This document shows positions 1,643-54,389 of a stretch of 64,000 nt of DNA, piece by piece. The notes beneath the pieces were generated by a model. It searched no databases and was not told the DNA's origin. It saw nothing but the letters and a program-made list of their open reading frames with translations. The position numbers were made by a program, and so were the translations under genes. Location of the stretch: assembly GCA_963808735.1 (NCBI GenBank), contig CAWEHE010000016.1:131028-195027 (forward strand). Direction: 5' to 3'. Each line of letters opens with the position of its first letter. Position 1 is the first letter of the stretch. The DNA comes from an uncultured Thermoleophilia bacterium. GTDB taxonomy: Bacteria; Actinomycetota; Thermoleophilia; UBA2241.

Positions 1643-1999
1643 TTACGCCCGAAGGCTGAGCACCCAGAGCACCTGATACGCGACCACGGCGGCGAAGACG
1701 CCGGCGACCAGCGCCGCCGCCACGGTGGAGATCCGGTAGACGCGCAGCCGCCAGAGGAACAGCGCGCCGACGGTCACGATGCCGACCTTGAACGCGAGCG
1801 CGGGCACCGTGCCGGCGCGCAGGAAGAAGTCCATGATGCCGTTGGACTCCGTCGCGAAGCCCAGCCACATCCCGTACCGGGTCAGGGCCAGGTCGGCGAC
1901 GTTGAGCAGCCAGAGCTCCACCAGCAGCAGGAGGAGCACCTGGTCCCGCGCCTCGCTGGGATGAGGCAGCGTCTTGTGCGTGCGGATCCGCAGGCTCAT
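1643..1999 (-). CDS. Small hydrophobic membrane protein (118 aa)
   Basis: This is the C-terminal 118 codons of ORF 1643..2752, starting at MSLRIRTHK. It is strongly hydrophobic with high GC3. Its start overlaps the upstream gene's stop (ATGA). Confidence 0.45.
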   Translation of the reverse strand: MSLRIRTHKTLPHPSEARDQVLLLLLVELWLLNVADLALTRYGMWLGFATESNGIMDFFLRAGTVPALAFKVGIVTVGALFLWRLRVYRISTVAAALVAGVFAAVVAYQVLWVLSLRA

Positions 2000-3057: not shown

Positions 3058-3164
3058 CTGGGCCGGCGCCGCGGTGCCGAAGACCGGCGGCGGCGCCGGC
3101 GGCGGGCCCGAGAGGGCGCCGTCCGCCGCGGCCGGCTGCTCCGGCTGCCCGCCCGCGGTTGGGC

Positions 3165-5618: not shown

Positions 5619-5704
5619 GGCTCACCTCGGGCCGGCTCGTGGCAGGGAGACCAGTGTACCGTCCCCGTGCAGGAAAGGCGCGCGTAGGGCAGGATGGTAG
5701 GACG

Positions 5705-35724: not shown

Positions 35725-36654
35725 CTACGCCAGCATCCGCTCCACGGCCCGGAGGGCCTTGACGCGAGTCTGTTCTGGCACGGTCACCTCGTGATCGAGG
35801 ACGTCGTCCCACTCCTCGCCGAGGGTGGCGACGCACTGCTCGAGCGTGGTGAGCTTCATGTTGGGGCAGACGGCCCGGTTCGAGGCCGGGATGAACTTCC
35901 TGTCGGGGTAGAGGATGCCCAGCCGGTAGAGGAGCCCGGTCTCGGTGGCGACGACGAAGGTCGTCGCGTCGCTGGTGCCGGGGTAGCGCAGCATCCCGGA
36001 CGTGCTGGTGACGACGTCGGCGATGTCGAGCACCTCGCGCCGGCTCTCCGGGTGGGCCATGAGCACGCTGCCCGGGTTGGCGGCGCGGATCTCGTCGATC
36101 TCGGCGGCGCGGAAGTCGTCGTGCACGTGACACCAGCCCTGCCAGAGGATCATCGTCTCCTCGCGGCCCGTCTGACGGGCGACGTAGTCCCCGAGGTTCC
36201 TGTCGGGCACGAAGATGATCTGCTGGTCCCTGGGGAAGCGGTCCACGATCTGGACGGCGTTGGCGCTCGTGCAGCACACGTCGGTCTCGGCCTTGATGTC
36301 CGCCGACGTGTTGACGTAGGCGACGACGACGGCGTCGGGATGCTCGGCCTTGAGCTTGCGCAGCCCGGCCACCGTGACCATGTCGGCCATGGGGCAGCCG
36401 GCGCGCTTGTCGGGCATGAGCACGGTCTTCTGCGGCGAGAGGATGTACGCGGTCTCGGCCATGAAGTGCACGCCGCAGAAGAGGATCACCTGGTGCGGGT
36501 CCTTCTGCGCGATGCGCGACAGCTCGAGGGAGTCGCCCGTGTGGTCCGCGGCGTCCTGCACCTCGGGGCGCTGGTAGTTGTGGGCGAGGATGACGACATC
36601 ACGCTCGGCGGCGAGGCGACGGAGTTCCCTCTGGAGGTCGTTCAGCTCGGGCAT
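35725..36654 (-). CDS. nadA: Quinolinate synthase
   Basis: It matches NadA over its full length (VILAHNYQ..., CGVHFMAE, three conserved Cys). Confidence 0.9.
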   Translation of the reverse strand: MPELNDLQRELRRLAAERDVVILAHNYQRPEVQDAADHTGDSLELSRIAQKDPHQVILFCGVHFMAETAYILSPQKTVLMPDKRAGCPMADMVTVAGLRKLKAEHPDAVVVAYVNTSADIKAETDVCCTSANAVQIVDRFPRDQQIIFVPDRNLGDYVARQTGREETMILWQGWCHVHDDFRAAEIDEIRAANPGSVLMAHPESRREVLDIADVVTSTSGMLRYPGTSDATTFVVATETGLLYRLGILYPDRKFIPASNRAVCPNMKLTTLEQCVATLGEEWDDVLDHEVTVPEQTRVKALRAVERMLA

Positions 36655-38428: not shown

Positions 38429-39085
38429 TCAGTCCTCGTCGCCTCCGGGCGCAGCCGTTTCGCCGCGCACCGCGGCGAGGCGCTCCTTGAAGCCCGTCTC
38501 CTCGAAGATGGTCTGCACTTCCTTCACCACGTCCTCAGGCGGGAAGAGGTCGCCGAGCCCGAGCTCCTCGCGGATCTCGAGCAGGTGCTCCATGTAGTCG
38601 GTCCACTTCTCGCCCCAGGCCTCGCCGATGGCCGGGAACATGAGGTGCGGGTCGCCGCCCATGCCCTTCTCGTAGAAGTTGCCGCACCACTCGGCGAACA
38701 TCTCCACGTGCCGGCGGCCGCGTCCGTTCTCGACCTGGATGCCGCGCACCACCTGGTTGATGACGGCGACGCTGTTGTGGCGCGGGCAGCGGCTCTGGCA
38801 GGTGTAGCAGTAGTAGCAGTACCAGAGCGTGTCGTCCTCGAGCAGCGTGACGTCGCCGTCCAGGGCGCGGCGCGCCGTCTCTCGCGGCGAGTACTCGGTG
38901 AAGCGCGCCGCGGGGCAGCCGGAGGTGCAGACGCCGCACTGGATGCAGCTCTGGAAGCCGTCCTTGTGGTCGTGCATGCGCGGGTCGTCCAGGATGCGCT
39001 TGACCAGCTCGGGGTCGCGCCGCGGGGCGGCCGCGAACGTATCGTCCGCGAGGTGCGCGTACGGGTTGTCCTTGGCGTCAGTCAT
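38429..39085 (-). CDS. Heterodisulfide reductase subunit C-like (2x[4Fe-4S] ferredoxin-type)
   Basis: The motifs are CIQCGVCTSGCP and CYYCYTCQSRCPR. Confidence 0.75.
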   Translation of the reverse strand: MTDAKDNPYAHLADDTFAAAPRRDPELVKRILDDPRMHDHKDGFQSCIQCGVCTSGCPAARFTEYSPRETARRALDGDVTLLEDDTLWYCYYCYTCQSRCPRHNSVAVINQVVRGIQVENGRGRRHVEMFAEWCGNFYEKGMGGDPHLMFPAIGEAWGEKWTDYMEHLLEIREELGLGDLFPPEDVVKEVQTIFEETGFKERLAAVRGETAAPGGDED

Positions 39086-40256
39086 CGGTGCGCTCCTCGG
39101 GGGCGTTGGGCACGGCCTTGAAGTACTCGGGCCAGAAGTGGACGGGGACGTCGAGCTTGAGCTCGCGCGCGGCGGAGCGGAGGTTGTCGCGGCAGAGCAC
39201 GCAGGTGGTGACCACCGGCGCGCGCTGCTCGGCGGCGAACTCCAGGAGCCACGCGCTGGACTTGGTGGCGCCCCGGTACATGCCGCCGAGGGCACCACAG
39301 CAGCCGCTGTGCAGCGTCGGGTAGTCGACCACCATGGCGGCGCCCGACTGCTCGGCGGCGTCGCCGAGCGCGGCCAGGGCTGCGTCCCGGTCGGCGAGGC
39401 AGCCGACGTAGGGGACGAAGCGCTCGGAGGCGGCCGTGAGCGAGATCGACGAGTTGCGGCCGGCGCGCTCCGTGAGCGCGTCCCAGAGCGGGACCGCTTC
39501 GACGCCGCTCTCGGCGAGGCTCGCGTCGCAGGCCGGGCACGCGGTGTAGACGCGCTCCCGGCTCGCGAACAGGCTGTCGACCGTGCCGCGGCTCGGGTGG
39601 CCGCAGCAGCCGGCGCCCGCCGACTCGTCGAGGCGGACGCCGAAGCCGGCGGCCACCTCATGCACCACGGCGTGCAGCTCGTGGTCCTGCGGGATCGCGC
39701 AGCCGGCGTAGAAGGGCAGCGTGACGGCGTCTGCCGGAAGGGCTGCGCCCGCCGGCGCCTTCTTGCCGCCCGGCAGCATCTGCTTCGCCAGCTTCACGCC
39801 CATCTCGGCGGCGCCCACCTTGTCCCTGGGAACGTAGCCCTTGGAGACCATGGCCGCGCCGAAGCGCAGGTTGTCGATGCGCGACCGCTTCTGCAGGTGG
39901 TCCGTGGCCACGTCCGCGGCCGTGCGCTCGGCGCAGCGGATCGCGCCGCCGTGCTCGCGCTCGAGCCGGCGCAGACTGTGCAGGACGCCCGCGACGTCGA
40001 TGTCCATGCGGCAGACCGAGGTGCAGGTGCCGCACTCGGTGCAGCGCCAGAGGTCGTCGCTCTTGAGGACGGCCTCGATCTCACCCGCGAGGATGAGCCG
40101 GACGAGCCGGCGCGGCCCGCGGTACAGCTCGCGTCCGCTCGGACAGCTGGAGGTGCAGGTGCCGCACTGGTAGCAGGCCGAGCACTCGGCGGCGAGCTCC
40201 TTGAACGCGGCGGTGACGGCGTCCGGATACGCGATGACGTCAGGCGACGTGGCCAC
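39078..40256 (-). CDS. HdrD/GlpC-like Fe-S oxidoreductase (N-terminal 2x[4Fe-4S] plus two CCG domains)
   Basis: The motifs are CYQCGTCTSSCP, CTECGTCTSVC, CCGHPSRG and CCGALGG. The start is taken at the GTG 8 nt after GGGAGG. Confidence 0.7.
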   Translation of the reverse strand: MATSPDVIAYPDAVTAAFKELAAECSACYQCGTCTSSCPSGRELYRGPRRLVRLILAGEIEAVLKSDDLWRCTECGTCTSVCRMDIDVAGVLHSLRRLEREHGGAIRCAERTAADVATDHLQKRSRIDNLRFGAAMVSKGYVPRDKVGAAEMGVKLAKQMLPGGKKAPAGAALPADAVTLPFYAGCAIPQDHELHAVVHEVAAGFGVRLDESAGAGCCGHPSRGTVDSLFASRERVYTACPACDASLAESGVEAVPLWDALTERAGRNSSISLTAASERFVPYVGCLADRDAALAALGDAAEQSGAAMVVDYPTLHSGCCGALGGMYRGATKSSAWLLEFAAEQRAPVVTTCVLCRDNLRSAARELKLDVPVHFWPEYFKAVPNAPEERTDD

Positions 40257-42687
40257 AGCGCTCACCTCCCGCGCAGGCGGCGCCGGTGGCCGCGCCTGCA
40301 AGGGCGCCGGGTCCGGCGCCGATCAGCTCCATCTCGCGCTCGAGTGTCTCCAGCGAGAGTTCGTCGCCGGCGGCCAGGGACGCGAACAGGCGGATGCGCC
40401 GCCCGACGCTCAGGCGGTCGACTGCGCAGAGGTGCCAGAGCTCGAGCGGCAGGGGCGTGCCGCTCCCCGCCAGCACCTCTTCGGCGATGCGCAACTGCTC
40501 CAGCGCGCTGGTGTCCCCAGTACGGTACTGGCAACGGCCTTCCGCGCAGCCGGCGAGAAAGACGCCGGCGGCACCCAGGCGGGCCGCCTCCACGATGTGC
40601 AGAGCGCTGACGCGGCCCAGGCACGGCAACTCGATGAGTCGCACGTTCTCGGGGTAGTGGTCGCGGTGCTGGCCGCTCAGGCTGATGGCGGCGCCGGCGC
40701 ACTCCTTGCAGTAGAAGCCGATGACCGGCGCGTCCACGCCTTCGGTCATGAGCGCGATGCGGCCGAACAGCGCGTCGTCGGCGAGGTTGTGGGCGACGGC
40801 GACCTCGGGGCAGTTCGCCGCGCAGATGCCGCAGGCCCGGCAGATCTCGGGGTCGATCACCGCCAGCTTGCCGTCGTCCTTGACCTCGGCCGGACGCGCC
40901 GCGTCCGCCGGACGGTCCTCCAGGGTGATCGCGCCGAAGGGACACATGGTCATGCAGGTGTCACAGCCCACGCACTGGGCGGCGTCCACCCGGGACGGCG
41001 CCGTGCCGAGGCGGCCGGGCGAGGTGAGGAACGTGTGGATCTGGCCGGCGACCGCGGCCGCCTCCGTGTTGACCTCGATGAGCGCCTTGGGGCCCGCGGC
41101 CGAGCCGCACACGAAGATGCCCTCGGTGCTCGTCTCGGTGGCGCGGTTCTTGCGGTCGAGGATGTCGATGAAGCCGTCGTCGTCGCGGTCCACCCCGAGC
41201 GACTGGGCGAGGCGCTCGGTCTCCGTGGCCGGCACCATGCCCGTGCTGAGGACGACCAGGTCGGGCCGCAGCACGCGCTTGCGCGCGGCGGTGACGTCCT
41301 CGACCTCGATCACCGGCCGGCCGGCGGCGTCGAACTGCACCTCGGGCGGCGTGCCGCGCAGGAATTCCACGCCGGCCTCGCGAGCTCCGAGGAACCAGTG
41401 CTCGTAGCCCACGCCGGCCGTCCTCATCTCGAGATAGCAGACCGTGATCTTCATCTCGGGAAAGAGGGTCTTGAGCCGAATCGCGTGCTTGAGCGCGATC
41501 ATGCAGCAGAGGCGCGAGCAGTGCGGCAGGTGGCGCTTGTCGCGCGACCCGGCGCACTGGATCATGACGAGCTCCTTGACCGGAATGCGGCCGAGCGAGG
41601 CCTGGCCCTCCCAGTCGTCGAGCATCGACGCGAGCTCCACCTGCGTCACGACGCTCTCGTGGTCGGGGTGGAACTCGGAGTAGTACTTGCGGGGCGCCGG
41701 CTCGCAGCCGACGGCGGTGAGGATGGCGCCGGCGTGGATCTTGAAGCTCTCGGGCGACTGCGCGAAGTCGATCGCCTCGACCGGGCACTCCTCGGCGCAC
41801 TTGCCGCAGAAGGTGCAGGTGTCGAGGTCGATGGTACGCACGACTCTGCCGTCGTAGAACTCGCTGAAGATGGCCTTCTTGCCGGGCTCCGACGCCTCGA
41901 CCTCGCACACCGTCTCGCAGGTCCCGCAGTTGATGCAGGCGTCGGTCACCATATTGGGCAGGCGACGGACGCTGACCTCGAAGTCCCCGGGGTGCCCGCT
42001 GACGCCCTCGACGGTGGCGCGCCGGCGGATGGTGAGGTTGGGGTGGTCGATGGAGACGTTGCGGTGGAAGCACTTGCGCGTGCCCGCCTGGGCGTCGCCG
42101 GCGGGAAGGCACTGGCCGCAGTCGTTGGTGGGGAACACGGTGCCGATGCGCGCGGCGCGGCCGCCCAGGAAGGGCCGCCGCTCGATGAGCTCGACCGGAT
42201 GTCCCATCTTGGCGAGCTCCGCGGCGGCCTGCGTGCCGGCCACGCCGCCGCCGATGACCACGACGGTGTCGTGGCGCTCGGCGTAGGCCATGGTGTCGGC
42301 CGGGGCGTCTGGATACAGCACGGACGAGTCGACGATCCGCATGGCCTTGTCGGTCACGGCGGCGACGTCGTCACCGTGGACCCAGCTGCAGCCCTCGCGG
42401 ATGTCGGCGATCTCGAGCTGCAGGCCACGCGCGAAGAGCTTGTGCAGCCGGCGCGCGGCGAAGTCCTGTGAGCAGCCGGCGAAGACGAGTTGCCGGTCGC
42501 CGGTCTCCATCAGCTCGAGGAGCTGCGCCTGGCCCCCGCGGCTGCACCAGTGGGTGCCGCGAAGCACATCGGCGTGCAGGCCCGCGTGCTGCTCCAGCTG
42601 GTCGAAGTCGATGTTGGTGAGCGTGCCGGCGCACTCGCAGAGGAGCACGAGCGGGCGCGCCGGTCCGGTCCCGTTGGAGGCGGTCAT
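40240..42687 (-). CDS. HdrA-like FAD-dependent oxidoreductase with C-terminal MvhD (methyl-viologen-reducing hydrogenase delta)-like domain
   Basis: It has the FAD motif VVVIGGGVAGTQAA, four ferredoxin-type Cys clusters, CCMIALKHA and a C-terminal FYCKECAGAA...LPCLGRVS domain. Confidence 0.75.
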   Translation of the reverse strand: MTASNGTGPARPLVLLCECAGTLTNIDFDQLEQHAGLHADVLRGTHWCSRGGQAQLLELMETGDRQLVFAGCSQDFAARRLHKLFARGLQLEIADIREGCSWVHGDDVAAVTDKAMRIVDSSVLYPDAPADTMAYAERHDTVVVIGGGVAGTQAAAELAKMGHPVELIERRPFLGGRAARIGTVFPTNDCGQCLPAGDAQAGTRKCFHRNVSIDHPNLTIRRRATVEGVSGHPGDFEVSVRRLPNMVTDACINCGTCETVCEVEASEPGKKAIFSEFYDGRVVRTIDLDTCTFCGKCAEECPVEAIDFAQSPESFKIHAGAILTAVGCEPAPRKYYSEFHPDHESVVTQVELASMLDDWEGQASLGRIPVKELVMIQCAGSRDKRHLPHCSRLCCMIALKHAIRLKTLFPEMKITVCYLEMRTAGVGYEHWFLGAREAGVEFLRGTPPEVQFDAAGRPVIEVEDVTAARKRVLRPDLVVLSTGMVPATETERLAQSLGVDRDDDGFIDILDRKNRATETSTEGIFVCGSAAGPKALIEVNTEAAAVAGQIHTFLTSPGRLGTAPSRVDAAQCVGCDTCMTMCPFGAITLEDRPADAARPAEVKDDGKLAVIDPEICRACGICAANCPEVAVAHNLADDALFGRIALMTEGVDAPVIGFYCKECAGAAISLSGQHRDHYPENVRLIELPCLGRVSALHIVEAARLGAAGVFLAGCAEGRCQYRTGDTSALEQLRIAEEVLAGSGTPLPLELWHLCAVDRLSVGRRIRLFASLAAGDELSLETLEREMELIGAGPGALAGAATGAACAGGERCGHVA

Positions 42688-43124
42688 GCGCTCACCACTC
42701 CGGCAGCGGCCGGCTGGGACGGCGCGGTATCCGCTTTCGGCGGCTGCGCCTCGATGGCGTCGGCCGGGCAGCCGCGGGCGCAGGTACCGCATCCCAGGCA
42801 CTTCTCGTCGTCGTAGACGATGCTGCGGTAGACGGTGACGCGCTCCGGCACCTCGACCGGGCCGTCGGGCTCGTGCTGCATGAGCCGGCGCAGCGCAGCC
42901 CCGAGCTCGCCGCGGCGGCTGCCCTCCGGCGCGTCCAGGAGCTGGTTCACGTCGAAGAAGTCGCCGCGCTCGGAGGCGCCGCTGGGGCAGTTCTTGGCGC
43001 AGGTGCCGCAGCCGACGCAGAGCTCTTCGTGACGGACGATCTCGCAGCCGACGCCGACGGTGCTCTGCAGCGAGCCGCCGGGCACGCGGTCGAGGATCTC
43101 GCGTCCGCGGTGGGTGAGCGGCAT
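42684..43124 (-). CDS. 4Fe-4S dicluster ferredoxin-like protein
   Basis: It carries two CxxCxxCxxxCP motifs. Confidence 0.65.
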   Translation of the reverse strand: MPLTHRGREILDRVPGGSLQSTVGVGCEIVRHEELCVGCGTCAKNCPSGASERGDFFDVNQLLDAPEGSRRGELGAALRRLMQHEPDGPVEVPERVTVYRSIVYDDEKCLGCGTCARGCPADAIEAQPPKADTAPSQPAAAGVVSA

Positions 43125-43633
43125 CAGGCGGCCCCCCTCTCCGCGGGGGAGGCGGCGCGGCCGGCCGCGCCGGCCTCGGATCGCGGCAGCGGCGGCAGGC
43201 CGCCGATCACGCGATCCATCTCGCGCACAGCGGCCACGAACTTGGGCGGCTCGCCGGCGCTCATCGTGAACATGCGGCAGCGCTCGGGCTCCACGCCCAC
43301 GCTCTCGAGCATCCGCTGCACGAACGTCACCCGGTCGACGGCCCTGAAGTTGCCCTCGCGGTAATGGCACTGGCCGAGCAGGCAGCCGGCGACCATGACG
43401 CCGTCGGCGCCCTCTGCCAGGGCGCTGAGGAGGTGCAGCGGACTGACGCGGCCGGTGCACGGCATCAGCACGAGACGGACAGTCGGCGGCAGCGGCGTGC
43501 GCGCGTTGGCGCTCGCGTCGGCCGCCGCATAGGCGCACTCCCGGCAGCAGAACGCGACGATGGTGCGGTCGCCGCTCGTCGCGCCGGCGCCTGCCGCGGC
43601 TCCGGTCGCCGTGGCTGTCGTGGATGCCGTCAT
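43124..43633 (-). CDS. MvhD/FlpD-like domain protein
   Basis: The sequence reads IVAFCCRECAYAAAD...LVLMPCTGRVSPLHLLSALAEGADGVMVAGC. Confidence 0.65.
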   Translation of the reverse strand: MTASTTATATGAAAGAGATSGDRTIVAFCCRECAYAAADASANARTPLPPTVRLVLMPCTGRVSPLHLLSALAEGADGVMVAGCLLGQCHYREGNFRAVDRVTFVQRMLESVGVEPERCRMFTMSAGEPPKFVAAVREMDRVIGGLPPLPRSEAGAAGRAASPAERGAA

Positions 43634-46600
43634 CAGACGGTCGCCTCCGCCAGCACCTCGGCGTCGCTGAAGCCGCCGAGCTGCATCGCCCCTGTGGGGC
43701 ACTCGGCGGCGCAGATGCCGCAGCCGCGGCAGATGTTGGGGTCGACGAACGAGTGCGCTTCGGGTCCGACCGTGATGGTGATCGCCGTCTGCGGGCAGGC
43801 CGTCTCGCAGACGCCGCAGGCGACGCAGACCAAGGCGTCGCTGGAGGCGACCTGCGCAGGCGTCATCGCGAAGCCCGTGCTCAGCATGCTGATGGCACGG
43901 GCCGCCGCCGCCTTGGCCTGTGCGATCGACTCGGGGATCGTCTTGGGTCCTTGCGCGGTGCCGCACAGGTACATCCCGGTGCGCTGCGTGTCGACGGGGG
44001 CGAGCTTGGGGTGGAACTCGCGGATGAAGCCGGCGGCCGCCGTCTGCACGCCGGCGACGCGGGCGATGTCCTGCGTACCCGCGGAGCCCTCGAGGCCGGC
44101 GGAGAGCACCACGAGGTCGTACTGATCCTCGCTCTTGGCGCCGGTCATGGTGTTCTCCATGCGCACCGTGAGCGAGCCGTCCTGCTCCTCGAGGATCTCG
44201 CCGACGCGGCCGCGCACGTAGCGCACGCCGCGCTCCTGCACCAGCCGGTAGTACTCCTCGTGCGCCTTGCCCGGCGTGCGCATGTCGGTGTAGCCGATGG
44301 TGATCTCGGCTTCCGGGTAGTGCTGCTTGATCAGCGAACTGTGCAGTGTGGCGAACAGGCAGCAGATGGCCGAGCAGTGCTCGTTGCCGCTGCTGGTGCA
44401 GTCGCGCGAGCCGACGCACTGGAGCATGAAGATGCGCTTGGGCGTCTCGCCGTCGGAGGGACGCTCGAGCTCGCCCGCGGTCGGCCCGGAGGCCGACAGC
44501 AGCCGGGCGAGCTGGCTCTGCGTGAGCACGTTCTTGAAGCGGCCGTAGCCGAGCGGCAGCTTGCGCGCCGCGTCGAACTCCTGATGGCCGGTCGCCAGGA
44601 TGACGGCGCCGACGGTGATCTCCTCGTCCCAGGCCTTCTGGTCGAAGTCGATGGCGTCGGCGGGGCACGCCGTGACGCACGACTTGCAGTCGGAGCACAC
44701 GGCGCAGTCGAGGCAGCGCTCGGCCTCGGCGCGGACGTCCTCCTCGCTGAAGCCGAGGCGGACCTCCTCCCACGTGGTGCGGCGCGCGACGCCGTCCAGG
44801 GTCTTCATGATGCGGCGCGCCTGCGGCTCGAGCGGGTCGAGCTCCGTGTGCGGGATCTTGACCTTGTCGGCCTCGGAGTCCCACACGGGGATCAGCTGCT
44901 CGCCGCGCAGGAAGTTGTGCACGGCGCGGGCGCCGCGACGGCCGGCGGCGATCGCCTCGATCGCCGTCCAGGGGCCCATCGCGGCGGCGTCCCCGCCGGC
45001 GAACACGCCGGTGCGGCCGGTCATCATCGTGTCGGGGTCGACGGTGATCTGGCCGCGGGCGACGGCGACGCCGTCGGCGCCGGTCGCCACGAAGTCGTCG
45101 ACGATCGCCTGGCCGACCGCGAAGATGACGGTGTCGGCCTCGAGCTCGACGAACTCGCCCTCCACGGGCACCGGCGGGCGCCAGCCGCGCTCGTTGGGCT
45201 CGCCCAAGGTACAGCGCTGGAACTTCACGCCGGTGGCGACGCCGCCCTTGCCGAGGATCTCGACGGGCACGAGTGAGTACTCGACGTGGACCTGCTCCTC
45301 CTTGCCTTCTTCGATCTCCTCGGACGAGGCCGGCGCCGTGCGCTCGTCCTCGATGCAGGCGAGGGTGACCTCGCCGGCGCCGCAGCGGTACGCCGTGCGG
45401 CCGGCGTCGTAGGCCACGTCGCCGCCGCCGACCACGACCACGCGCTTCCCGGTGGTCACCGTCTCGCCGAGCGCCTGCGCGCGCAGGAACTCGACGGCGC
45501 GCAGCGACGCCCTGCTGGTCGAGGCCGTCGATCGGCAGGTCCTTGCTCTGGTGCAGGCCGGTCGCCAGGAAGACGGCCTTGTAGCCGTCGGCGAACAGCG
45601 AGTCGACGGTGAAGTCGGAGCCGCAGCGCATGCCCGGTCTTGAGCTCGACGCCGAGGGCGGTGATGCGGTCCACCTCGCCCTGCAGCGCGGTGCGCGGCA
45701 GGCGGTACTCGGGGATGCCCACGCGCAGCATGCCGCCGGCGACCGGGAGAGCCTCGAACACGGTCGCCTTGTAGCCGAACTGCGCGAGCTCGCGAGCGGC
45801 GGTGAGGCCGGCGGGGCCGCCGCCGACGATCGCCACGGGCTCGTCGTAGAACACCGGCAGCGCCTCGGGCATCTCGCCCGGGACGCCGTGGTCGGCGACG
45901 AAGCGCTTGATGCCGGCGATGGCGATCGGGTCCTCCACCTTGCCGCGCGTGCACTCGGTCTCGCAGACGTGCGTGCAGATGCGGCCGCAGACGCTGGGGA
46001 AGGGGTTCGGCTCGCTGGCGACCCGGTACGCCTCCTCGTAGCGGCCCTTGGCGACCAGCGCCACGTAGCCGTGGGCGGACGTGTGCACGGGGCACGCGGT
46101 CTTGCAGGGGCTCCAGCCCTTGCGGTCGACGGCGAAGGTCGCCGGGACGGCGTTGGCGAACGGCCGCGAGATCGCGGTCCGCTCGCTGACGCCGAAGTCG
46201 AACTCGTTCGGGTAGGTCACGGGACACACCGCGGAGCACTCGCCGCAGCCGACGCACTTCTCGTCCACGTAGCGGGGCCGGTGGCGGAGCGTCACGTTGA
46301 ACTCGCCGGGGGGGCCGGTGACGGAGGTGACGTCGGAGAGCGTGTGGATGTGGACGCGGCTGTTGGTCGCGGCGCCGGTCAGGCGAGGCGCCAGCGAGCA
46401 CATGGCGCAGTCCTCGGTCGGGAAGGTCTTGCTGAGGCGGGACATGTAGCCGCCGATGCTCTGCTGGCGCTCGACGAGGTGGACCTCGATGCCCGCGGCG
46501 GCCAGCTCCTCCGCGGCGGACATGCCGGCGATGCCGCCGCCGACCACCATGACGGAGCGGTTGAGGAACGTGCGCTGGCGCGGCAGGTCGCTCATGTGCT

Positions 46601-46979
46601 GCAGACGGGCGACGGCGCCCTCGACGATCTTGCTCGCCTTGACCTGCGCGCGCTCGGGCTCGTGCGCGTGCACGTAGGAGCAACCCTCGCGGATGTTGCC
46701 GAAGGCCACGGAGTTCTCGCCCAGCTTGAGCTCGCGCGCGATGCGCTCGAAGGTCGGGCCCTGGAAGCGCGGCGAGCACGAGGCGATGACGAAGTGGTCG
46801 AGGCCGCGCTCTTCCACGGCCTTCTCGATCATCGCGCGGCCCTCGGTGCCGCACATGAACTGGTTGACGTTCACCTCGACGACGCCGTCCAGCGCGCGCA
46901 CGTGCTCGGCGAGCGGCTCGAGGTCGATCACGCCGCTGATGTTGCCGCCGCACTGGCAGAGGAAGACTCCGGCCCTCAT
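43633..46979 (-). pseudogene. Giant HdrA-like flavoprotein with inserted GltD/NfnB-like NAD(P)H-binding module; two apparent +1 frameshifts near 45623 and 45505
   Basis: The sequence is split over three frames. Frame 1: MRAGVFLCQCGGNISG..., FAD motif, GltD-like CGRICTHVCE, FAD-2 site VAIVGGGPAGL...KTGHAL. Frame 2: GSDFTVDSLFADGYKAVFLATG. Frame 3: LRAVEFL...VVVVGGGDVAYD, the HdrA core, CCLFATLHS and two terminal ferredoxin clusters. Confidence 0.75.
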
Positions 46980-47941
46980 CCCACGACCTCCATGCTGCGG
47001 GCGCCGATGCGCTCGAGGAAGGGCTCGACATCCTGGGAGTGCGTCTGGACGCCGACGATCTTCTCGGGGTCGGCGCCCATCGCCAGCGCCAGGAGCTGCT
47101 GCACGTGCAGGTGCACGAACGGGTACTCCTCGCCGAATCCCGCGGAGATGATGTCGCTGAAGCGGTCGAACTGGATGTGGCAGTTGGGGCACATGTGCAC
47201 GAGCACGTCGACCTTCTCCTCGGCCAGCCGGTGCAGCTTCTTCTGCGTCACCCCGACCGAGATCGACGGGTTGACGAAGCGGTTGCGGAAGCCGGCCCCG
47301 CAGTGGGTCTGCTTCTCGTTGTAGGCGCCGGTGCAGGTGACGCCGGCGGGGATGAGCATCTCCTCCGGCACCATGAAGTTCTCGTTGTTGCCCAGGGTCT
47401 CGTCGGGGAAGACCTTGCAGTAGTGGCAGGCGGGGTGGGTGGCCACCTTGATGCCGTCGAGGCGACGGCGGATGAGCTCCGGCACGCTGTCGTGGGCGCC
47501 CCACAGGATCTCGAGGGTGTGCTTGTGCTGGACGGTGCCGGCGATGCGGTCGTCGTACTCGCGGCCGATCTTGCCGAGCACGTCGTTGGTCTCCGCGCGG
47601 TAGCCGGGGACGTCGAGGATGTTGCGCGCCTTCTTGTTGATCGCGTAGCAGGTGGAGCAGAGGTAGCTCATCACGGGGTGCTCGTCGTCGACGACGACGC
47701 AGGCGTTGCGCGCGGCGATGCCGACGGTGGTCTGGATCGGCATGAGGTCGGAGTAGTAGCCGAGGCCGGTGCAGCACGTCTGGTCCTCGTTGACGGTGTA
47801 CTCGATGCCGAAGCGCTCGAAGAGCCACTTGGTCGACGACTCGACGCCCGGGTACTCGGCCGAGACCAGGCAGCTGCGGAACAGCGTGACGCCCTTCTCG
47901 ATGCGCGGCACGTCGGGAGTTGAAGTGTAGCGTTTGCCCAT
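46976..47941 (-). CDS. Heterodisulfide reductase subunit B-like (two CCG domains)
   Basis: The motifs are CCTGLG and CPNCH. An AT-richer promoter region lies upstream at 47990-48330. The start is M1 or M14. Confidence 0.7.
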   Translation of the reverse strand: MGKRYTSTPDVPRIEKGVTLFRSCLVSAEYPGVESSTKWLFERFGIEYTVNEDQTCCTGLGYYSDLMPIQTTVGIAARNACVVVDDEHPVMSYLCSTCYAINKKARNILDVPGYRAETNDVLGKIGREYDDRIAGTVQHKHTLEILWGAHDSVPELIRRRLDGIKVATHPACHYCKVFPDETLGNNENFMVPEEMLIPAGVTCTGAYNEKQTHCGAGFRNRFVNPSISVGVTQKKLHRLAEEKVDVLVHMCPNCHIQFDRFSDIISAGFGEEYPFVHLHVQQLLALAMGADPEKIVGVQTHSQDVEPFLERIGARSMEVVG

Positions 47942-48329
47942 GGTCCCCTCGCGGTAGCTGACGACTCGGCTATTGTCCATAAGAAATGCTGTTCCTGCAA
48001 ATCAGCTTGGCTTATAGATGGCGTGAGGGTGATAAGCGGGCGTCCAGCCGGACGATTCAGGCGCCTTCAGTCTGATGCGCGAGCGCGCGAGGCGGCCGGT
48101 CGCCGGCGCCACGCCGCAGGCCGGGAGTCTCTCACATGCCCTGTCACCGTCCTGCGTCGAGGAGGTACGGAGCGCCGCGGGCCGAGACCAACAGGCGTCG
48201 CTTCACGTGGCGACACCAGGTGCATGCGGGCGCGTTACAGGGGACCCGATTCAGGGGAGGAATCTAGTACCAGCACCGGTGTCGTGGCCCCCGCTCCGGA
48301 GGCCGCAGCCGCCTCGAGGGGAGGGCTCA

Positions 48330-48566
48330 ATGCGCCAGGTCCACCCGATGCCGACCCAGACGCATTCCGGTCACGCGCCCGTGCCTGCACCTCCGTCGAC
48401 CGTCCGCTCCCTCGACAGCGCCCACTGTGGCCTGTGCGGCGCCAAGCTGTCCACCAGGACCCTCCGCTATCACGTCGTCTCGCCACAATGCTGCGACGCG
48501 CCCATCACGGTGTGCCACACCTGCCGCAACGCGGCGCTGGGCGAAGGGTACCGGCCGGCCGAGTAG
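48330..48566 (+). CDS. Hypothetical small Cys-rich protein (CxxC...CC...CxxC, zinc-ribbon-like)
   Basis: It has a strong RBS (ggggaggg 5 nt before ATG) and high GC3. It lies in the divergent promoter region between the hdr cluster and hemE. Confidence 0.35.
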   Translation: MRQVHPMPTQTHSGHAPVPAPPSTVRSLDSAHCGLCGAKLSTRTLRYHVVSPQCCDAPITVCHTCRNAALGEGYRPAE

Positions 48567-48712
48567 CCGGTGGACCTGCGGTGCACCGCCAGTTGGCTGG
48601 TCCGCGCAGAAGCGGGGCGGCCCGGGTCTTCGCCTCCGACGGGAGCCCGAGGGCTCCCGTTTGCTACAATCACCATCCCGACGCTTCTGTCCCGCCACAC
48701 CAGGTGATGCCC

Positions 48713-49738
48713 ATGCGCCTTCTCGATGCCTGTGCCCGCAAGCCCGTCGACGCGACGCCGATCTGGCTCATGCGCCAGGCCGGCCGCTACCTGCCCGAGT
48801 ACCGCGCCATCCGCGAGAAGATGAGCTTCGTGGAGATGTGCCGGCGGCCGGACATCGCGGCGGAGGTCACATTGCAGCCGCTCCGCCGCTTCGACCTCGA
48901 CGCCGCCATCGTCTTCGCCGACATCCTCCTGCCGCTCGAGCCCATGGGGATCGGCTTCCACTTCACGCCCGAGGATGGCCCCGTCATCGAGCGGCCCATC
49001 CGCGGCGCTCGCGACCTCGAGGGCGTGCACACCATCGACGCGGCGTCGGACCTCGAGTACGTCATGGACACCATCCGTCTCGTGCGTCACGAGATGGACG
49101 ACGACATCCCCCTCATCGGCTTCTCCGGCGCGCCGTTCACCCTGGCCAGCTACATCGTCGAGGGCGGCCACTCGCGCAACTACGCGCACGTCAAGAAGCT
49201 CATGTACCAGGACCCGGTGACGTTCAACCGGCTGATGGGGCTCATCTCCGAGGTCGTCGTGGACTACCTCAAGGCGCAGATCGCCGCCGGCGCCCAGGTC
49301 GTGCAGCTGTTCGACTCCTGGGTCGGCTGGCTGAGCCCTTACGACTACGAGCTCCTCGTGCTGCCGCACGTTCGGTACGTGGTCGACCACGTCAAGGGCC
49401 TGGGGGCGCCGGTCATCTACTTCGGCAACGGCGCCTCGGCGATGCTCCACCTCGTCGGCAAGGCGGGGAGCGACGTGTACGGCGTCGACTGGCGCATCGA
49501 ACTCGACCGCGCCTGGGACCAGCTCGGTGACGTCGCCGTGCAGGGCAACCTCGACCCGATCACGCTCCTCGGACCTGTCAAGGCCATCGAGGAGCGCGCC
49601 GCGGACGTGATCCGTCGCGCCGGCGGCCGGCCGGGGCACATCTTCAACCTCGGGCACGGCCTGATCCCGCAGGTGCCGCCGGACAACGTCAAGTACCTCG
49701 TCGACGCCGTGCACCGGCTCTCGGCCGCCACCGCCTGA
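48713..49738 (+). CDS. hemE: Uroporphyrinogen decarboxylase
   Basis: The HemE signatures are PIWLMRQAGRYLPEY and GFSGAPFTLASY. An AGGTGA RBS sits before the second ATG. Confidence 0.9.
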   Translation: MRLLDACARKPVDATPIWLMRQAGRYLPEYRAIREKMSFVEMCRRPDIAAEVTLQPLRRFDLDAAIVFADILLPLEPMGIGFHFTPEDGPVIERPIRGARDLEGVHTIDAASDLEYVMDTIRLVRHEMDDDIPLIGFSGAPFTLASYIVEGGHSRNYAHVKKLMYQDPVTFNRLMGLISEVVVDYLKAQIAAGAQVVQLFDSWVGWLSPYDYELLVLPHVRYVVDHVKGLGAPVIYFGNGASAMLHLVGKAGSDVYGVDWRIELDRAWDQLGDVAVQGNLDPITLLGPVKAIEERAADVIRRAGGRPGHIFNLGHGLIPQVPPDNVKYLVDAVHRLSAATA

Positions 49739-49760
49739 GCCTGCCGGGGAGATCCACGCC

Positions 49761-50726
49761 ATGACCGACAGCCTCGTCGACGTCGCTCTTCTCGCCTACG
49801 GCGGTCCGGAGAGCCCCGAGCAGATCGTGCCCTTCCTCGAGCGGCTGATGGGGCGCACGCCCGACCCGGGGACGGTCGCCGCCGTGCAGGAGCGCTACGC
49901 GCTCATCGGCGGCGCCTCGCCGCTGCCCGGCATCACCGCTCTCCAGGCGGCTGCGCTCGAGGCCAAGCTCGTCAAGGAGCTCGCGTTCCCGGTGCGCGTG
50001 CGCCACGGCTTCCTGTACACCGAGCCGGGCGTCACCGACTGCGTGCGATCTCTCGATGGGCACCGGGTGATCGCCCTGCCGATGAGTCCCTTCTCGTCGC
50101 GGCTCACGAGCGGCCGGTACCGGACGCAGCTCGCGGCCGCGGAGGACCCGGCCACCGGCGGCCGCGGCCGTGACATCCCGCTGCTCGAGGGCTGGTACGC
50201 GAGCCGCGGCTTCGTGCAGACCATCAGCCGCCGCGTCGCGGCGGCGCTCGACGGCTGCGACGTCAACGAGTGGGCCGTGCTCTTCACCGCGCACAGCGTG
50301 CCGTCCGAGACGATCGCCGAGGGCGACCCCTACGTGGACCAGCTGCAGATGACGATCTCCCAGCTGGTCCCGCAGATCATGCCGGGCGACTGGCGCTTCG
50401 GCTTCCAGAGCAAGGGCCGCGGCGGGGGCGAGTGGATGGGCCCGGAGGCCGACGACGTGGTGCGCCTCCTGGCGGAGGAGGGCTGGAAGAAGATCCTCGT
50501 CGTGCCGGTCGGCTTCGTCAGCGACAACGTGGAGACCCTCTACGACCTCGACATCGTGCTGCGCGCCCAGATCGAGGGCCTCGGCATCGAGTACCGCCGT
50601 TCGCACGCGCCCAACGACTCGCCCTACTTCATCGACGCGCTCGCCGACGTCGTCACCGACTACCTCGCCCTGCGGCCGGTCGCGCATGCTCCCCACCGGC
50701 CCGACGGCCCGCACGAGCACGGCTGA
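49761..50726 (+). CDS. hemH: Ferrochelatase (coproporphyrin ferrochelatase-type)
   Basis: It matches HemH/CpfC over its full length (VALLAYGGPES, HSVP region). Confidence 0.85.
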   Translation: MTDSLVDVALLAYGGPESPEQIVPFLERLMGRTPDPGTVAAVQERYALIGGASPLPGITALQAAALEAKLVKELAFPVRVRHGFLYTEPGVTDCVRSLDGHRVIALPMSPFSSRLTSGRYRTQLAAAEDPATGGRGRDIPLLEGWYASRGFVQTISRRVAAALDGCDVNEWAVLFTAHSVPSETIAEGDPYVDQLQMTISQLVPQIMPGDWRFGFQSKGRGGGEWMGPEADDVVRLLAEEGWKKILVVPVGFVSDNVETLYDLDIVLRAQIEGLGIEYRRSHAPNDSPYFIDALADVVTDYLALRPVAHAPHRPDGPHEHG

Positions 50727-52348
50727 TGCCCGAGCCCTTCCGCATCGTCGTGGTCGGCGGCGGCATGGCCGGCCTCGGGGCGGCGCGCGTGCTCGAGGCG
50801 GCGCGCGCCCAGGACACCTCCGTCGACTGGCAGCTCTACGAGGAGGAGCCGCGCTTCGGCGGCAAGGTCCACACCGTGCGCCGCGACGGGTTCGTCGTCG
50901 AGGGCGGGCCCGACTCGGCGATCATCGAGAAGCACTGGCCGATCACGGCCGCACGCGAGCTGGGCATCGGTGACCGCTTCCTCGACTGCAACGAGGACAT
51001 CCGGAAGAGCTTCGTCTACACCCGCGGGCAGCTGCACGAGCTGCCCGAGGGCATCATCCTCATGGTGCCGACGCGCATGGTGCCGTTCGCGATGAGCGGC
51101 CTGATGAGCTGGCCGGGCAAGGTCCGCATGGGCCTCGACCTGGTGCTGCCGCGAGGCGGCGGGGCGACGGGAGGGCCGGCGGGCGCCATCGGGCCGGCCC
51201 TCGACGAGAGCCTCGGCGACTTCGTCCGCCGCCGGCTCGGCAAGGAGGCGCTGCAGCGCATCGCCGAGCCGATCGTGGCCGGCATCCACGCCGGCGACCC
51301 CGAGCAGATGAGCGTGCGCGCGACCTTCCCCATGTTCCTCGACATGGAGCGCGAGCACCGCAGCCTGATCCTCGCGATGCTCAAGCGGCGCAAGGCGCGC
51401 CAGAAGGCCGCCGCCGCCCGCGGCGGCGGGCAGGGTGCGCCGGCCGGCGGGGCGACGGGGTCCGCCGCGGCCGGGACCGGCGGGACCGGCGGTGCCAGCC
51501 CCCAAGGCCCGCGCTCGTATTTCTACTCATTCAAGGGCGGGCTGCAGGACCTCAGCGACGCGGCCGTCGCGTCGCTGCCGGCCGAGCGCCTGCACGGTGG
51601 GGTCGGCGTCAAGACGATGGCCGCCTGCGGTGCCGGGTGCGGCGCCAGCGCCAGGACCGGCGCCTACGCGCTGCAGCTCGGCGACGGCTCGCGCGTGGTG
51701 GCCGACGCCGTCGTCCTCGCGACTCCGGCGTGGGCGAGCGGCGACCTGCTGCGGGCCATCGCGCCGCTCGCCGCCGCCGACCTCTCGTCCATCGACTACG
51801 TCACGACTGCGACCGCTTCGGTCGCCTTCCGGGCGGACCAGGTGGGGCACGACCTCAAGGGCTTCGGCTTCGTCGTGCCTCGCGCCGAGAACCGCCCCGT
51901 CATGGCGACTACGTGGAGCTCGAGCAAGTTCGACGGGCGCGCTCCCGACGGCCACGTGCTGCTGCGCAGCTTCCTCGGCCGAGCCGGGCGTGAGGCCGCG
52001 GCCCAGCTGGACGACGACGAGATGGCCGCGGTCGTGCGCGCCGAGCTGCGCGAGATCATGGGCATCTCGTCCGAGCCGGAGTTCGTGCAGATCTTCCGCT
52101 GGCCGCGCGGCATGCCCCAGTATCGCGTCGGCCACGTCGAGCTGGTCGGGCACATCGAGGCCGCCGTCGCCCGCGTGCCGGGCGTCGAGATCGCCGGCGG
52201 CGCCTACCACGGCATCGGCATCGGCGACTGCCTGCGCGAGGGCGCGGCCGCCGCGGAGCGCGCCCTCGAGCACGTCCGCGGCCTGCCCGAGGACGACGTC
52301 CCGCCGCAGCCGCCGGACCTCCCCGCCGCCGACGGCCTCGAGGATTAG
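50726..52348 (+). CDS. hemY: Protoporphyrinogen/coproporphyrinogen III oxidase (HemY/CgoX family)
   Basis: It has the N-terminal FAD motif IVVVGGGMAGLGAA and a HemY C-terminus (GVEIAGGAYHGIGIGDC). A low-complexity insertion is present. Confidence 0.85.
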   Translation: MPEPFRIVVVGGGMAGLGAARVLEAARAQDTSVDWQLYEEEPRFGGKVHTVRRDGFVVEGGPDSAIIEKHWPITAARELGIGDRFLDCNEDIRKSFVYTRGQLHELPEGIILMVPTRMVPFAMSGLMSWPGKVRMGLDLVLPRGGGATGGPAGAIGPALDESLGDFVRRRLGKEALQRIAEPIVAGIHAGDPEQMSVRATFPMFLDMEREHRSLILAMLKRRKARQKAAAARGGGQGAPAGGATGSAAAGTGGTGGASPQGPRSYFYSFKGGLQDLSDAAVASLPAERLHGGVGVKTMAACGAGCGASARTGAYALQLGDGSRVVADAVVLATPAWASGDLLRAIAPLAAADLSSIDYVTTATASVAFRADQVGHDLKGFGFVVPRAENRPVMATTWSSSKFDGRAPDGHVLLRSFLGRAGREAAAQLDDDEMAAVVRAELREIMGISSEPEFVQIFRWPRGMPQYRVGHVELVGHIEAAVARVPGVEIAGGAYHGIGIGDCLREGAAAAERALEHVRGLPEDDVPPQPPDLPAADGLED

Positions 52349-52981: not shown

Positions 52982-53422
52982 TCAGTACTTGCCGAGCGCC
53001 TTCCAGATCCAGCGGTGCGGGGCGTGCATGCTCATGCCGGGCTTGTTGTACATCACGGCGCAGTGCCCGGTGATGACCTTGAGCCCGCGCTTCTCGGCCT
53101 CGGCGAGCGCCTCGGGCGTGTCGGTCATCTGGTGGAGCCAGATCTGCTCGACCCCGGCGTCGGCCGCCTTGGCCACCCAGCCGGCGGTCTCCTCTTTAGG
53201 GAGCTCCATCACGGCGGCCTTGACCGGCGCCGGCAGGGAGGCGAAGTCGGCGTAGGCGGTGTCGCCCTCGACCGTCCCTCCGTCGGGATCCATCGCGTAC
53301 ACGGTCTTGCCGCGCTCCTTGAGCGCGCCGTAGGTGATCTTGGGGTAGGCCTTCTTGCTGGCCTGGTGGCCGATCACGGCGTAGCTGTCGGCATCCCAGA
53401 ATCCTTCGCACTCAGACGGCAT
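52982..53422 (-). CDS. CoA-binding domain protein (YccU-like)
   Basis: The CoA-binding fold reads VIGHQASKKAYPKI...GKTVYAMDPDGG...KVITGHCAVM. Confidence 0.7.
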   Translation of the reverse strand: MPSECEGFWDADSYAVIGHQASKKAYPKITYGALKERGKTVYAMDPDGGTVEGDTAYADFASLPAPVKAAVMELPKEETAGWVAKAADAGVEQIWLHQMTDTPEALAEAEKRGLKVITGHCAVMYNKPGMSMHAPHRWIWKALGKY

Positions 53423-54389
53423 CGTTTCCCTCCTGTGGTTCGTTCTCGGCGTAGCACTGGCCCGGAGCGACCACGTCAGGGTGGCGTCCGGCGGCGCGGA
53501 GCGCGGCGCGCACCTCGTAGCACAGATGGCACTCGTCTGCGTACAGGTCGCGCTGCGGGGTGTGGCCGGCGGCCTGGGCGAGAGCCCACGGGCCGCCGGC
53601 GAGGATCTCGCGGATGACGGGGCGGACGAGCGGGTCGTAGGAGTCGAGGACGGCGCGCAGGCCGCCGGGTCGTGGCGCGGCCAGGTCGTCGGGCGCCGGC
53701 GGACCGCCGCCTCCGACGAACACGTTGCCGGCGCTGATGCCCTGGCACACCTGGAGCTCGCCGTCCGGGCCGACGTGAGCGCGGCCCGGATCGGTGAAGT
53801 CCTCGAAGGGGCAGGTGGTGAGCGTCTCGGGCGGCCGGGACGCCCGCGCGGGCGCGAGCGCGACGGCCGCCCGTCCCTTGTGCATCACCTCGCCGACGTC
53901 GCCGGAGCAGGCGCCGGGCACGCCGATATCGGCCGGCGCCCCGACCTCGAGCACGCTGACGGGGATGCCGAGGGCCTGCGCCGCAAGCACGGCGTTGCGC
54001 AACTGCTCCTCGTTCGCGTCCTCGACGAAGTACGCATAGGACGAGAGCGAGAGATCGGCCACGCCGAGGTCGGCGAACGGCGCGAGCCACACCTTGGCGT
54101 CGTCTGCCGACGTCGCCCAGAAGCAGTTGCTGACGATGCCGACGTCGAGGCCGCGCTCGCGGGCATGCTTCGCCGCCGCGAGCACGATGGGATACGCGAG
54201 CGTGGGCTCGCCGCCCTCGAAGTACACGTCGGTGAGCCCGAGCTCCGCGCCCTGGTCGATGACGCTCGTGAGCTGCGCCAGCGTCATCGCGCCATCCGCG
54301 TCCGGCGACCCCCACACGAAGCAGTGGTCGCACGCGTAGGTGCAGCGGTAGGTGACCAGGAAGTGGATACCTTCGAGCCGGATGGCCAT
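53412..54389 (-). CDS. Radical SAM domain protein (uncharacterised subfamily, Cys-rich C-terminal region)
   Basis: It has the motif LVTYRCTYACDHCF (CxxxCxxC) and further Cys in CPFEDF, VCQG and ECHLCYEV. Its stop overlaps the downstream CoA-binding gene by 11 nt. Confidence 0.7.
   Translation of the reverse strand: MAIRLEGIHFLVTYRCTYACDHCFVWGSPDADGAMTLAQLTSVIDQGAELGLTDVYFEGGEPTLAYPIVLAAAKHARERGLDVGIVSNCFWATSADDAKVWLAPFADLGVADLSLSSYAYFVEDANEEQLRNAVLAAQALGIPVSVLEVGAPADIGVPGACSGDVGEVMHKGRAAVALAPARASRPPETLTTCPFEDFTDPGRAHVGPDGELQVCQGISAGNVFVGGGGPPAPDDLAAPRPGGLRAVLDSYDPLVRPVIREILAGGPWALAQAAGHTPQRDLYADECHLCYEVRAALRAAGRHPDVVAPGQCYAENEPQEGNDAV

Follow-up and report, generated by a model that had tools for sequence, protein, structure and literature searches.

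Organization of the hdr cluster and its gene products

The stretch of DNA analyzed here (the window) comprises 64 kb of contig CAWEHE010000016.1 in the GenBank assembly GCA_963808735.1 of an uncultured Thermoleophilia bacterium, and our subject is the cluster of genes for Hdr- and MvhD-like proteins located at 38429-47941. As the 72% G+C window yields many long spurious open reading frames (ORFs), the coding frames were traced by the third-position G+C content (GC3) and compared with the results of Pfam and NCBIfam searches. An earlier note, made from the sequence alone, had listed seven co-directional genes in this place, and all of these approaches bore it out. The assignments of the HdrA, MvhD, HdrB, HdrC, and ferredoxin homologues also held in the profile searches. 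The seven genes occupy the minus strand in the order hdrB-hdrL-mvhD-fdx-hdrA(MvhD)-hdrD-like-hdrC (5' to 3') and are as follows:

46976-47941, minus strand: HdrB-like protein, 321 aa; Pfam CCG at 60 bits, HdrB model matched over its full length
43633-46979, minus strand: giant HdrA (hdrL, type III HdrA), ~1113 aa when repaired; HdrA core with a GltD/NfnB-like module
43124-43633, minus strand: MvhD/FlpD, the [2Fe-2S] electron-relay subunit, 169 aa; Pfam FlpD at 144 bits over 1-119/123, NCBIfam VhuD at 126 bits
42684-43124, minus strand: ferredoxin-like protein, 2x[4Fe-4S], 146 aa; Pfam Fer4 and Fer4_7 at 36-123
40240-42687, minus strand: second HdrA with a fused C-terminal MvhD domain ("type Ia" or HdrA2-like), 815 aa
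39078-40256, minus strand: soluble HdrD-like protein with an HdrC-like N-terminus and two divergent CCG-like repeats, 392 aa
38429-39085, minus strand: HdrC-like protein, 2x[4Fe-4S], 218 aa; Pfam Fer4_8 and Fer4_17

Start and stop codons of the neighboring genes overlap or abut throughout the cluster (ATGA, 1-nt, 8-nt, and 17-nt overlaps), and the start of mvhD overlaps the stop of hdrL, which places mvhD immediately downstream of hdrL. Each of the seven genes is preceded by a Shine-Dalgarno-like sequence, GAGGGG in the case of the hdrB ATG. The G+C content of the cluster is 0.712 vs 0.721 for the window. None of the seven products contains a hydrophobic (membrane) segment, the maximum 19-residue hydropathy being 1.58. 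Altogether, we consider it likely that the region is a single operon, functional in nature, which would encode the subunits of a soluble iron-sulfur flavoprotein of the HdrL / type III HdrA kind, and that the frameshifts found in hdrL are single-base insertion errors of the metagenome assembly.

The core of the giant HdrA (HdrL) was found complete: N-terminal domain, FAD domain, inserted ferredoxin domain, and C-terminal ferredoxin domain. Between its two Cys motifs, the inserted ferredoxin domain accommodates a 470-aa GltD/NfnB-like module with two [4Fe-4S] clusters, FAD, and an NAD(P)H site. In the comparison with PDB structures, HdrL residues 2-287 corresponded to residues 5-291 of 5odc_A and residues 761-1106 to its residues 293-640, which puts the insertion point of the module between HdrA residues ~291 and 293; HdrL was colinear with both 5odc_A and 9sfi_A over 2-287 and 757-1109. 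The presence of a GltD/NfnB-like insert, proposed previously, was confirmed by the Pfam domains Fer4_20 and Pyr_redox_2 (aa 291-679) and by the structures of NfnB, GltD, and DPD (the N-terminal module of dihydropyrimidine dehydrogenase), which matched residues 290-693. Among the NCBIfam models, HdrA2/HdrA matched in two stretches and PRK12771 at 284-777. The module carries the FAD site GGGPAG and the NAD(P)H site GGGDVA, and none of the Fe-S cysteines of HdrL varies among 119 sequences. At 90% identity, the full-length homologues (1112-1118 aa) group into more than 100 clusters, the named ones being labeled "Thermoleophilia" or "Gaiellaceae".

Residues 541-544 of HdrL (within 43633-45504) belong to the NAD(P)H-site motif and read Y-R-R-T in 86 of the 119 family members and C-I-E-D in 30, the latter representing the clade of the window. 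In most members the second strand ends with Y-R-R-T, like that of the NADPH-using NfnB and GltD, and the GXGXXA fingerprint is kept in the window's clade. Application of the usual Rossmann-fold rule to C-I-E-D versus Y-R-R-T suggests a shift of the cofactor preference towards NADH in this clade.

The second HdrA matched the NCBIfam model HdrA2 (NF040770) with 467 bits over 4-738/777, and Pfam FlpD was detected at aa 655-742 (81 bits). The ferredoxin-like protein has two CxxCxxCxxxCP motifs with a spacing of ~60 residues, and its gene is kept at the same position in all loci of the relatives described below. The HdrC-like protein matched hdrC_Methbact over 11-191/192 with 205 bits, not reaching the cut-off of 270. 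The HdrB-like protein aligned end to end with HdrB of 5odc/8rvu and with the NCBIfam model HdrB (NF041780) over 3-303/304 (344 bits, cut-off 450). Its two CCG domains, covered by the Pfam match in two stretches, would carry non-cubane [4Fe-4S] clusters.

The assignment of the 392-aa protein was less straightforward. The earlier note had called it an HdrD-like CCG protein; the Cys motifs and the fold agree with this description, and the Pfam match does not. The CCG profile (PF02754) gave no match at E<=1e-3, a precomputed PF02754 match was present in only one of 120 homologues, and the C-terminal half showed no significant similarity to HdrB in hhalign (E=0.11). HdrC models of NCBIfam matched aa 25-108. 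The protein contains two invariant C-X30-32-CC-X21-31-C-X2-C repeats, built of C186, CC217-218, C240, and C243 and of C286, CC319-320, C352, and C355. EtfD of M. smegmatis is an HdrD-like protein and LutA is a CCG protein. When the AlphaFold (AF2) model, which was of moderate confidence (pLDDT 77.5), was used in Foldseek, the top match over the whole length was the M. smegmatis EtfD structure 9ojn (E 6e-5); HdrC chains matched the N-terminal part, and LutA (9a6l_A) was found with TMt 0.62. The CCG assignment of the HdrD-like protein is based on the invariant Cys motifs and the predicted fold.

An uninterrupted ORF of 1132 aa at 43633..47031 (minus strand) overlaps hdrL. The N-terminal half of its product, ~520 residues, is out-of-frame nonsense rich in Arg, Pro, and Ala; it was regarded as spurious because open out-of-frame stretches are typical of a 72% G+C genome. 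An automatic gene caller could report this ORF as the HdrL protein.

Frameshifts in hdrL and the quality of the assembly

The reading frame of hdrL is interrupted at two sites:

45629..45635, minus strand: frameshift site 1, one extra base, ACCGG[G]CATGCGC; relatives have GG-GCAG, GG-CGTG or GG-GATG
45504..45506, minus strand: frameshift site 2, one extra base, GGCGTC[G]CTGCGC; relatives have GTC-GTG or GTC-CTG

The two +1 shifts described by the earlier note were confirmed by tblastn and DNA alignment. With the intact homologue P0001 (1113 aa, 90% identical) as the tblastn query, residues 1-449, 447-491, and 492-1113 were recovered in three successive frames, and the alignment with 22 relatives revealed two window-specific single-base insertions ~127 nt apart. 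The closeness of the two shifts was as described previously; the upstream indel was located ~8 nt away from the proposed position 45623. A systematic scan showed that both insertions are absent from all 32 aligned loci. Both fall at codons that vary among the relatives, and the inserted versions resemble blends of alleles. The 43 codons between the insertions have coding-type GC3 and encode a segment 84% identical to P0001, and the remaining six genes of the cluster are full length.

Similar breaks were detected in other parts of the window. The gene kdpA is split over three frames (Pfam profile positions 3-213, 212-466, and 467-548; breaks at ~11390 and ~12140), and a BrkB/YihY-family gene over two (2-105 and 105-258; break at ~37220), the latter due to a window-specific 1-nt insertion at a variable codon. 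The frame trace and three-frame translations revealed breaks also in kdpB (~13358) and cysK (~34920), and two more are probable at ~3400 and ~28080. At least seven well-supported breaks were thus counted in 64 kb, which corresponds to approximately one indel per 7-9 kb. The earlier note read too much into the shifts, which are no peculiarity of the large HdrA gene: the same kind of 1-nt breaks occurs in kdpA, kdpB, cysK, and the BrkB-family gene. Among the relatives, the hdr genes of the "MFD...bin" metagenome-assembled genomes (MAGs), which we take to be Nanopore assemblies of the Microflora Danica project, showed frame changes scattered in position, 26 in 158 gene copies, vs five in 165 copies from other MAGs. 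The assembly behind the window is probably an error-prone, long-read one.

Since the insertions are absent in the relatives, lie at polymorphic codons, and are accompanied by the same kind of breaks in unrelated genes of the window, the shifts in hdrL are very probably consensus errors of a strain-mixed metagenome assembly and neither signs of decay nor programmed frameshifting. Two features of the insertions speak against this interpretation and would suit a genuine recent pseudogene, in which the first real 1-nt insertion was inactivating, the second neutral, and the complex is being lost: the shifts have the same direction (+1, +1) and do not compensate each other, and neither lies within a long homopolymer. 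We regard a pseudogene as very unlikely, as no more stops, deletions or loss of GC3 were detected across 9.5 kb, the segment between the shifts is conserved, and equivalent breaks occur in the unrelated housekeeping genes kdpA (two), kdpB, and cysK and in the BrkB-family gene. Moreover, related long-read MAGs are broken at other positions, and all indels that could be placed lie at strain-variable codons, as expected of consensus errors. The chance of programmed +1 ribosomal frameshifting at both sites appears negligible, for nothing beyond the presence of the two shifts speaks for it and, in all 32 aligned relatives, the extra bases are missing and a single frame encodes the protein. The idea of a decaying horizontal fragment, raised as a way in which the earlier proposal might fail, does not hold either: there were no further stops or signs of decay, the G+C content matched that of the window, and the cluster was syntenic in at least 14 related MAGs. 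Recent horizontal transfer of the cluster was likewise rejected. In this high-G+C, probably long-read assembly, gene breaks and the long spurious ORFs that come with high G+C should not be taken as biology.

Distribution, relation to known Hdr systems, and predicted function

A scan of one genome per GTDB species revealed 122 relatives, from which 80 loci were fetched, all of them from MAGs. Their hosts are mostly Thermoleophilia/Gaiellaceae, accompanied by Acidimicrobiia, Dormibacterota, MAGs labeled Chloroflexia, and one Binatia. Soils, peat fens and bogs, permafrost, lake sediments, and anaerobic digesters are the habitats of these relatives, and the "aerobe-like" character that the earlier note gave to the genome is not established. 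The identical seven genes in the identical order were present in every sufficiently long locus, and in at least 14 loci of related MAGs synteny extended over the whole 9.5 kb, with a nucleotide identity of 80-91%. The cluster is thus ancient, has been passed on vertically, and is selected for as a whole. No extra partner gene linked to it across all lineages was found in 52 long loci. The best locus (L001) was 91% identical at the DNA level over 12.4 kb and its HdrL was 94% identical.

The identity between L001 and the window is uneven, reaching 99% for HdrA2, 94% for HdrL, and 75% for the HdrD-like protein, which could reflect either recombination between related populations or errors in L001.

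In all 11-12 Dormibacterota/"Chloroflexia" loci, the cluster is located directly downstream, on the same strand, of genes for PFOR, a DHO-dehydrogenase-like protein, a complete HoxEFUYH-type [NiFe] hydrogenase, and hypA. The arrangement is listed below:

L045-L049, L052, L054-L057, and L074, ~1-8900 in locus coordinates, same strand: PFOR-Hox-hdr gene string, resembling one long redox gene string

In L070, a close relative of the window, a [NiFe] hydrogenase is encoded ~2 kb beyond hdrC. The window itself agrees with the previous remark that no hydrogenase is nearby, as confirmed for the 64 kb.

Fusions of this type have been described in several organisms. In D. autotrophicum, a large fusion of HdrA and the glutamate synthase small subunit, accompanied by MvhD, was named HdrL (PMC2702500), and in S. 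fumaroxidans, the genes Sfum_0819-0824 encode hdrABC, an FeS protein, mvhD, and hdrL, with high levels of the proteins in cells grown on sulfate (PMC5947623). In ANME-1, the ferredoxin domain of an HdrA harbors an NfnB-like insertion (PMC9012536). A survey of archaeal HdrAs from 2025 introduced the term "type III HdrA" and proposed that the GltD domain blocks the access of ferredoxin and feeds electrons of NADH to the bifurcating flavin; the HdrA-MvhD fusion is the "type Ia" HdrA of the same survey (PMC12054007). By its domain architecture, the cluster in the window is assigned to the described HdrL (bacteria) / type III HdrA (archaea) group and not to Flox, and its second CCG module, together with the modified motif of HdrB, brings it close to a variant of the HdrL kind. 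No published description of the cluster for the host lineages was found in the literature searched, and queries for Thermoleophilia, Gaiellales, Dormibacterota, and Actinobacteria turned up nothing specific.

The closest resemblance is to HdrL1-3 of D. autotrophicum and HdrABC/HdrL of S. fumaroxidans, in which hdrL is likewise followed by mvhD and the cluster encodes soluble proteins with no hydrogenase catalytic subunit; compared by description, the S. fumaroxidans gene set of hdrL, mvhD, FeS protein, hdrA, hdrB, and hdrC is matched by the window (PMC5947623). Set apart by the descriptions from the HdrL clusters of Desulfobacterota, the window has an extra hdrB and an HdrC-CCG fusion (the HdrD-like protein missed by Pfam CCG), lacks selenocysteine and nearby dsr genes, and belongs to a type hosted by Actinomycetota, Dormibacterota, and Binatia of soils and peat. 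The type III HdrAs (HdrA9-11) of ANME-1 and Bathyarchaeota share the ~470-500-aa NfnB/GltD-like insert in a type I HdrA, with NAD(P)H as the proposed mid-potential donor (PMC9012536, PMC12054007). Nine such archaeal sequences were reported, vs the 122 species-representative bacterial genomes found here, and the window-type hosts do not metabolize methane, so that CoM/CoB heterodisulfide is not expected as the substrate.

The methanogen complexes MvhAGD-HdrABC and Fdh-Hdr (5ODC, 7BKB, 8RVU) match the window in the folds and cofactor ligands of HdrA, HdrB, HdrC, and MvhD. They differ in the donor module, which in the window is an in-chain NAD(P)H domain and not a hydrogenase or formate dehydrogenase; compared with methanogen HdrABC, the window proteins miss all NCBIfam equivalog cut-offs, and the second HdrB motif is HCG with an extra Cys. 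HdrA2B2C2 of M. acetivorans (type Ia) contains the same HdrA-MvhD fusion as the second HdrA of the window. The score of the latter (467) is far under the HdrA2 cut-off of 1100, no F420-related genes are present, and the fusion accompanies HdrL instead of acting alone. FlxABCD-HdrABC (Flox) of Desulfovibrio/Moorella has also been proposed to be an NADH-dependent, HdrABC-based bifurcating complex with an MvhD-like subunit. The entry of NADH takes place there via the separate subunits FlxA/B/C, the genes for which are absent from the window cluster, and Pfam and NCBIfam detected no flxABCD-type domains in the seven products or in the products of the flanking genes. The label "Flox-like", given to the cluster by the earlier note, therefore names the wrong family; it conveys an analogy and not membership.

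From the arrangement of domains and cofactor sites, we infer a function in NAD(P)H-driven flavin-based bifurcation or confurcation between ferredoxin and a disulfide. NAD(P)H would be oxidized at the GltD-like FAD of HdrL, and the electrons would reach the HdrA flavin by way of the module's two [4Fe-4S] clusters and the split ferredoxin domain. HdrL might pair with the HdrA-MvhD fusion in a manner resembling the HdrA homodimer of methanogens, with MvhD relaying electrons and bridging both halves. HdrC or the N-terminus of the HdrD-like protein would guide high-potential electrons to the CCG-type clusters in HdrB and in the HdrD-like protein, where a disulfide or another oxidant could be reduced; the second HdrA, with its unobstructed ferredoxin domain, would be the exit for low-potential electrons, which the co-encoded ferredoxin would take up. 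The complex might just as well work in reverse (confurcation). In Dormibacterota, the linkage with PFOR and Hox is consistent with a function in keeping ferredoxin, NAD(P)H, and H2 balanced under anoxia.

Several points weigh against this interpretation. Of the two canonical CX(n)CCX(n)CXXC motifs, the HdrB-like protein has only the first in intact form; the second (residues 172-254) is altered to HCG (H213-C214) with the extra C175, a feature invariant in 69 of 69 sequences. The scores remained below the equivalog cut-offs (HdrA 633-707 vs 1100-1400, HdrB 344 vs 450, and HdrC 205 vs 270). No thiol-cofactor, DsrC-like, or hydrogenase genes were found in the 64-kb window. To our knowledge, HdrL and type III HdrA complexes have never been characterized biochemically, and the bifurcation itself, the direction of the reaction, the use of NADH or NADPH, and the substrate of the CCG site were all inferred. 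CoM-S-S-CoB is a very unlikely substrate in view of the missed equivalog cut-offs, the altered motif of HdrB, and the bacterial nature of the hosts.

LutABC, GlpC, EtfD, and succinate:quinone enzymes likewise make use of CCG proteins, and a real complex might be non-bifurcating or might not reduce a disulfide, coupling instead NAD(P)H to ferredoxin or to hydrogenase or using another substrate at the CCG site. The best fold match of the HdrD-like protein, which is EtfD, with LutA also detected, rather than methanogen HdrB, as well as the altered second CCG motif of HdrB, the lack of nearby thiol-cofactor genes, and the linkage to Hox hydrogenase and PFOR in Dormibacterota would agree with such a function. 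It nevertheless seems unlikely to us, given that both HdrA-type subunits keep the full core with all cluster ligands and are ~50% identical over the aligned stretches to structurally characterized bifurcating HdrA, and that HdrB and HdrC align over their full length with the methanogen subunits. Membership in another Hdr-like system (Flx/Flox-HdrABC, sulfur-oxidizing sHdr, or QmoABC) is highly improbable. HdrA, HdrB, HdrC, and MvhD homologues are common to all of these systems, and the sHdrA structure 6tjr was among the PDB matches, yet no FlxA-type NAD(P)H flavoprotein, lbpA/dsrE/tusA, or apr genes lie in or beside the cluster, the missing partner genes are not conserved next to it in the 52 long loci, no subunit has a membrane segment by hydropathy, and both HdrA-type proteins are full length vs the 349-aa sHdrA. 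sHdr was rejected on account of the full-length HdrAs and the neighbors (nadA, the BrkB-family gene, and hemEHY), and QmoABC on account of the lack of nearby apr genes and of a hydrophobic segment such as that of the membrane-bound QmoC (an HdrC/HdrE fusion).

The cluster would not surprise a specialist. The HdrL-type family is plentiful in uncultured Thermoleophilia, Acidimicrobiia, and Dormibacterota, lineages that dominate many soils and peatlands, and its conservation there is strict; its linkage with PFOR and a bidirectional [NiFe] hydrogenase in one lineage offers a concrete hypothesis on the handling of reducing power under anoxia. A more far-reaching proposal is tentative and, taken as a whole, doubtful. 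The seven genes might encode a previously uncharacterized, asymmetric "double" Hdr composed of an HdrL/HdrA-MvhD heterodimer and two different CCG-type reductase modules, widespread in uncultured Actinomycetota, Dormibacterota, and Binatia of soil and peat. Its substrate would be a non-methanogen thiol or protein disulfide, and with PFOR and the Hox-type hydrogenase as partners it would keep NAD(P)H, ferredoxin, and H2 in balance once these nominally aerobic lineages encounter anoxia. Archaea might, in addition, have acquired their rare type III HdrA from the bacterial clade.

Upstream region and other features of the window

The sequence directly upstream of hdrB is conserved among the relatives:

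47942..48040, minus strand: conserved AT-rich 5' region, putative promoter/operator, recognized in the alignment of upstream regions

Approximately 21 loci align across 47942-48040, and the segment 48040-48280 is unconserved. The alignment of more than 40 upstream regions revealed a putative promoter/operator motif consisting of TTATC-N~14-ATAAG followed by TGATTTGCAG-N~12-CTTATGGACAATA. The window itself shows repeated TTATC/ATAAG elements and a promoter-like TTGCAG...ACAATA pair in this region, which is AT-rich in a genome of 72% G+C. No terminator-like site was found 3' of hdrC, the Rfam scan of the whole window detected no element in or beside the cluster, and ARAGORN predicted no tRNA.

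The genes flanking the cluster, nadA (35725-36654) with the BrkB-family gene on one side and hemE/hemH/hemY (48707-52348) on the other, confirmed the neighborhood of nadA and heme-biosynthesis genes reported in the earlier note. Between hdrB and hemE, there is a conserved Cys-rich ORF of 78 aa (48330-48566, plus strand; CxLCG...VCHTCRxAALGEGYRP, zinc-ribbon or rubredoxin-like). It was present in 39 of 69 loci and, being placed directly upstream of hemE in 35 of these 39, belongs with the heme genes and not with hdr; as it travels with hemE, it was rejected as a candidate partner gene of the cluster.

Further away in the window, a glycine riboswitch aptamer (RF00504, 53.8 bits) was detected at 1467-1577 on the minus strand, upstream of the gene at 216-1376. 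A gene at 28752-30611 (minus strand) encodes a 619-aa protein in which a TIGR04282-type glycosyltransferase-like N-terminus is joined to a radical SAM/SPASM domain, and another radical SAM protein is encoded at 53412-54389.

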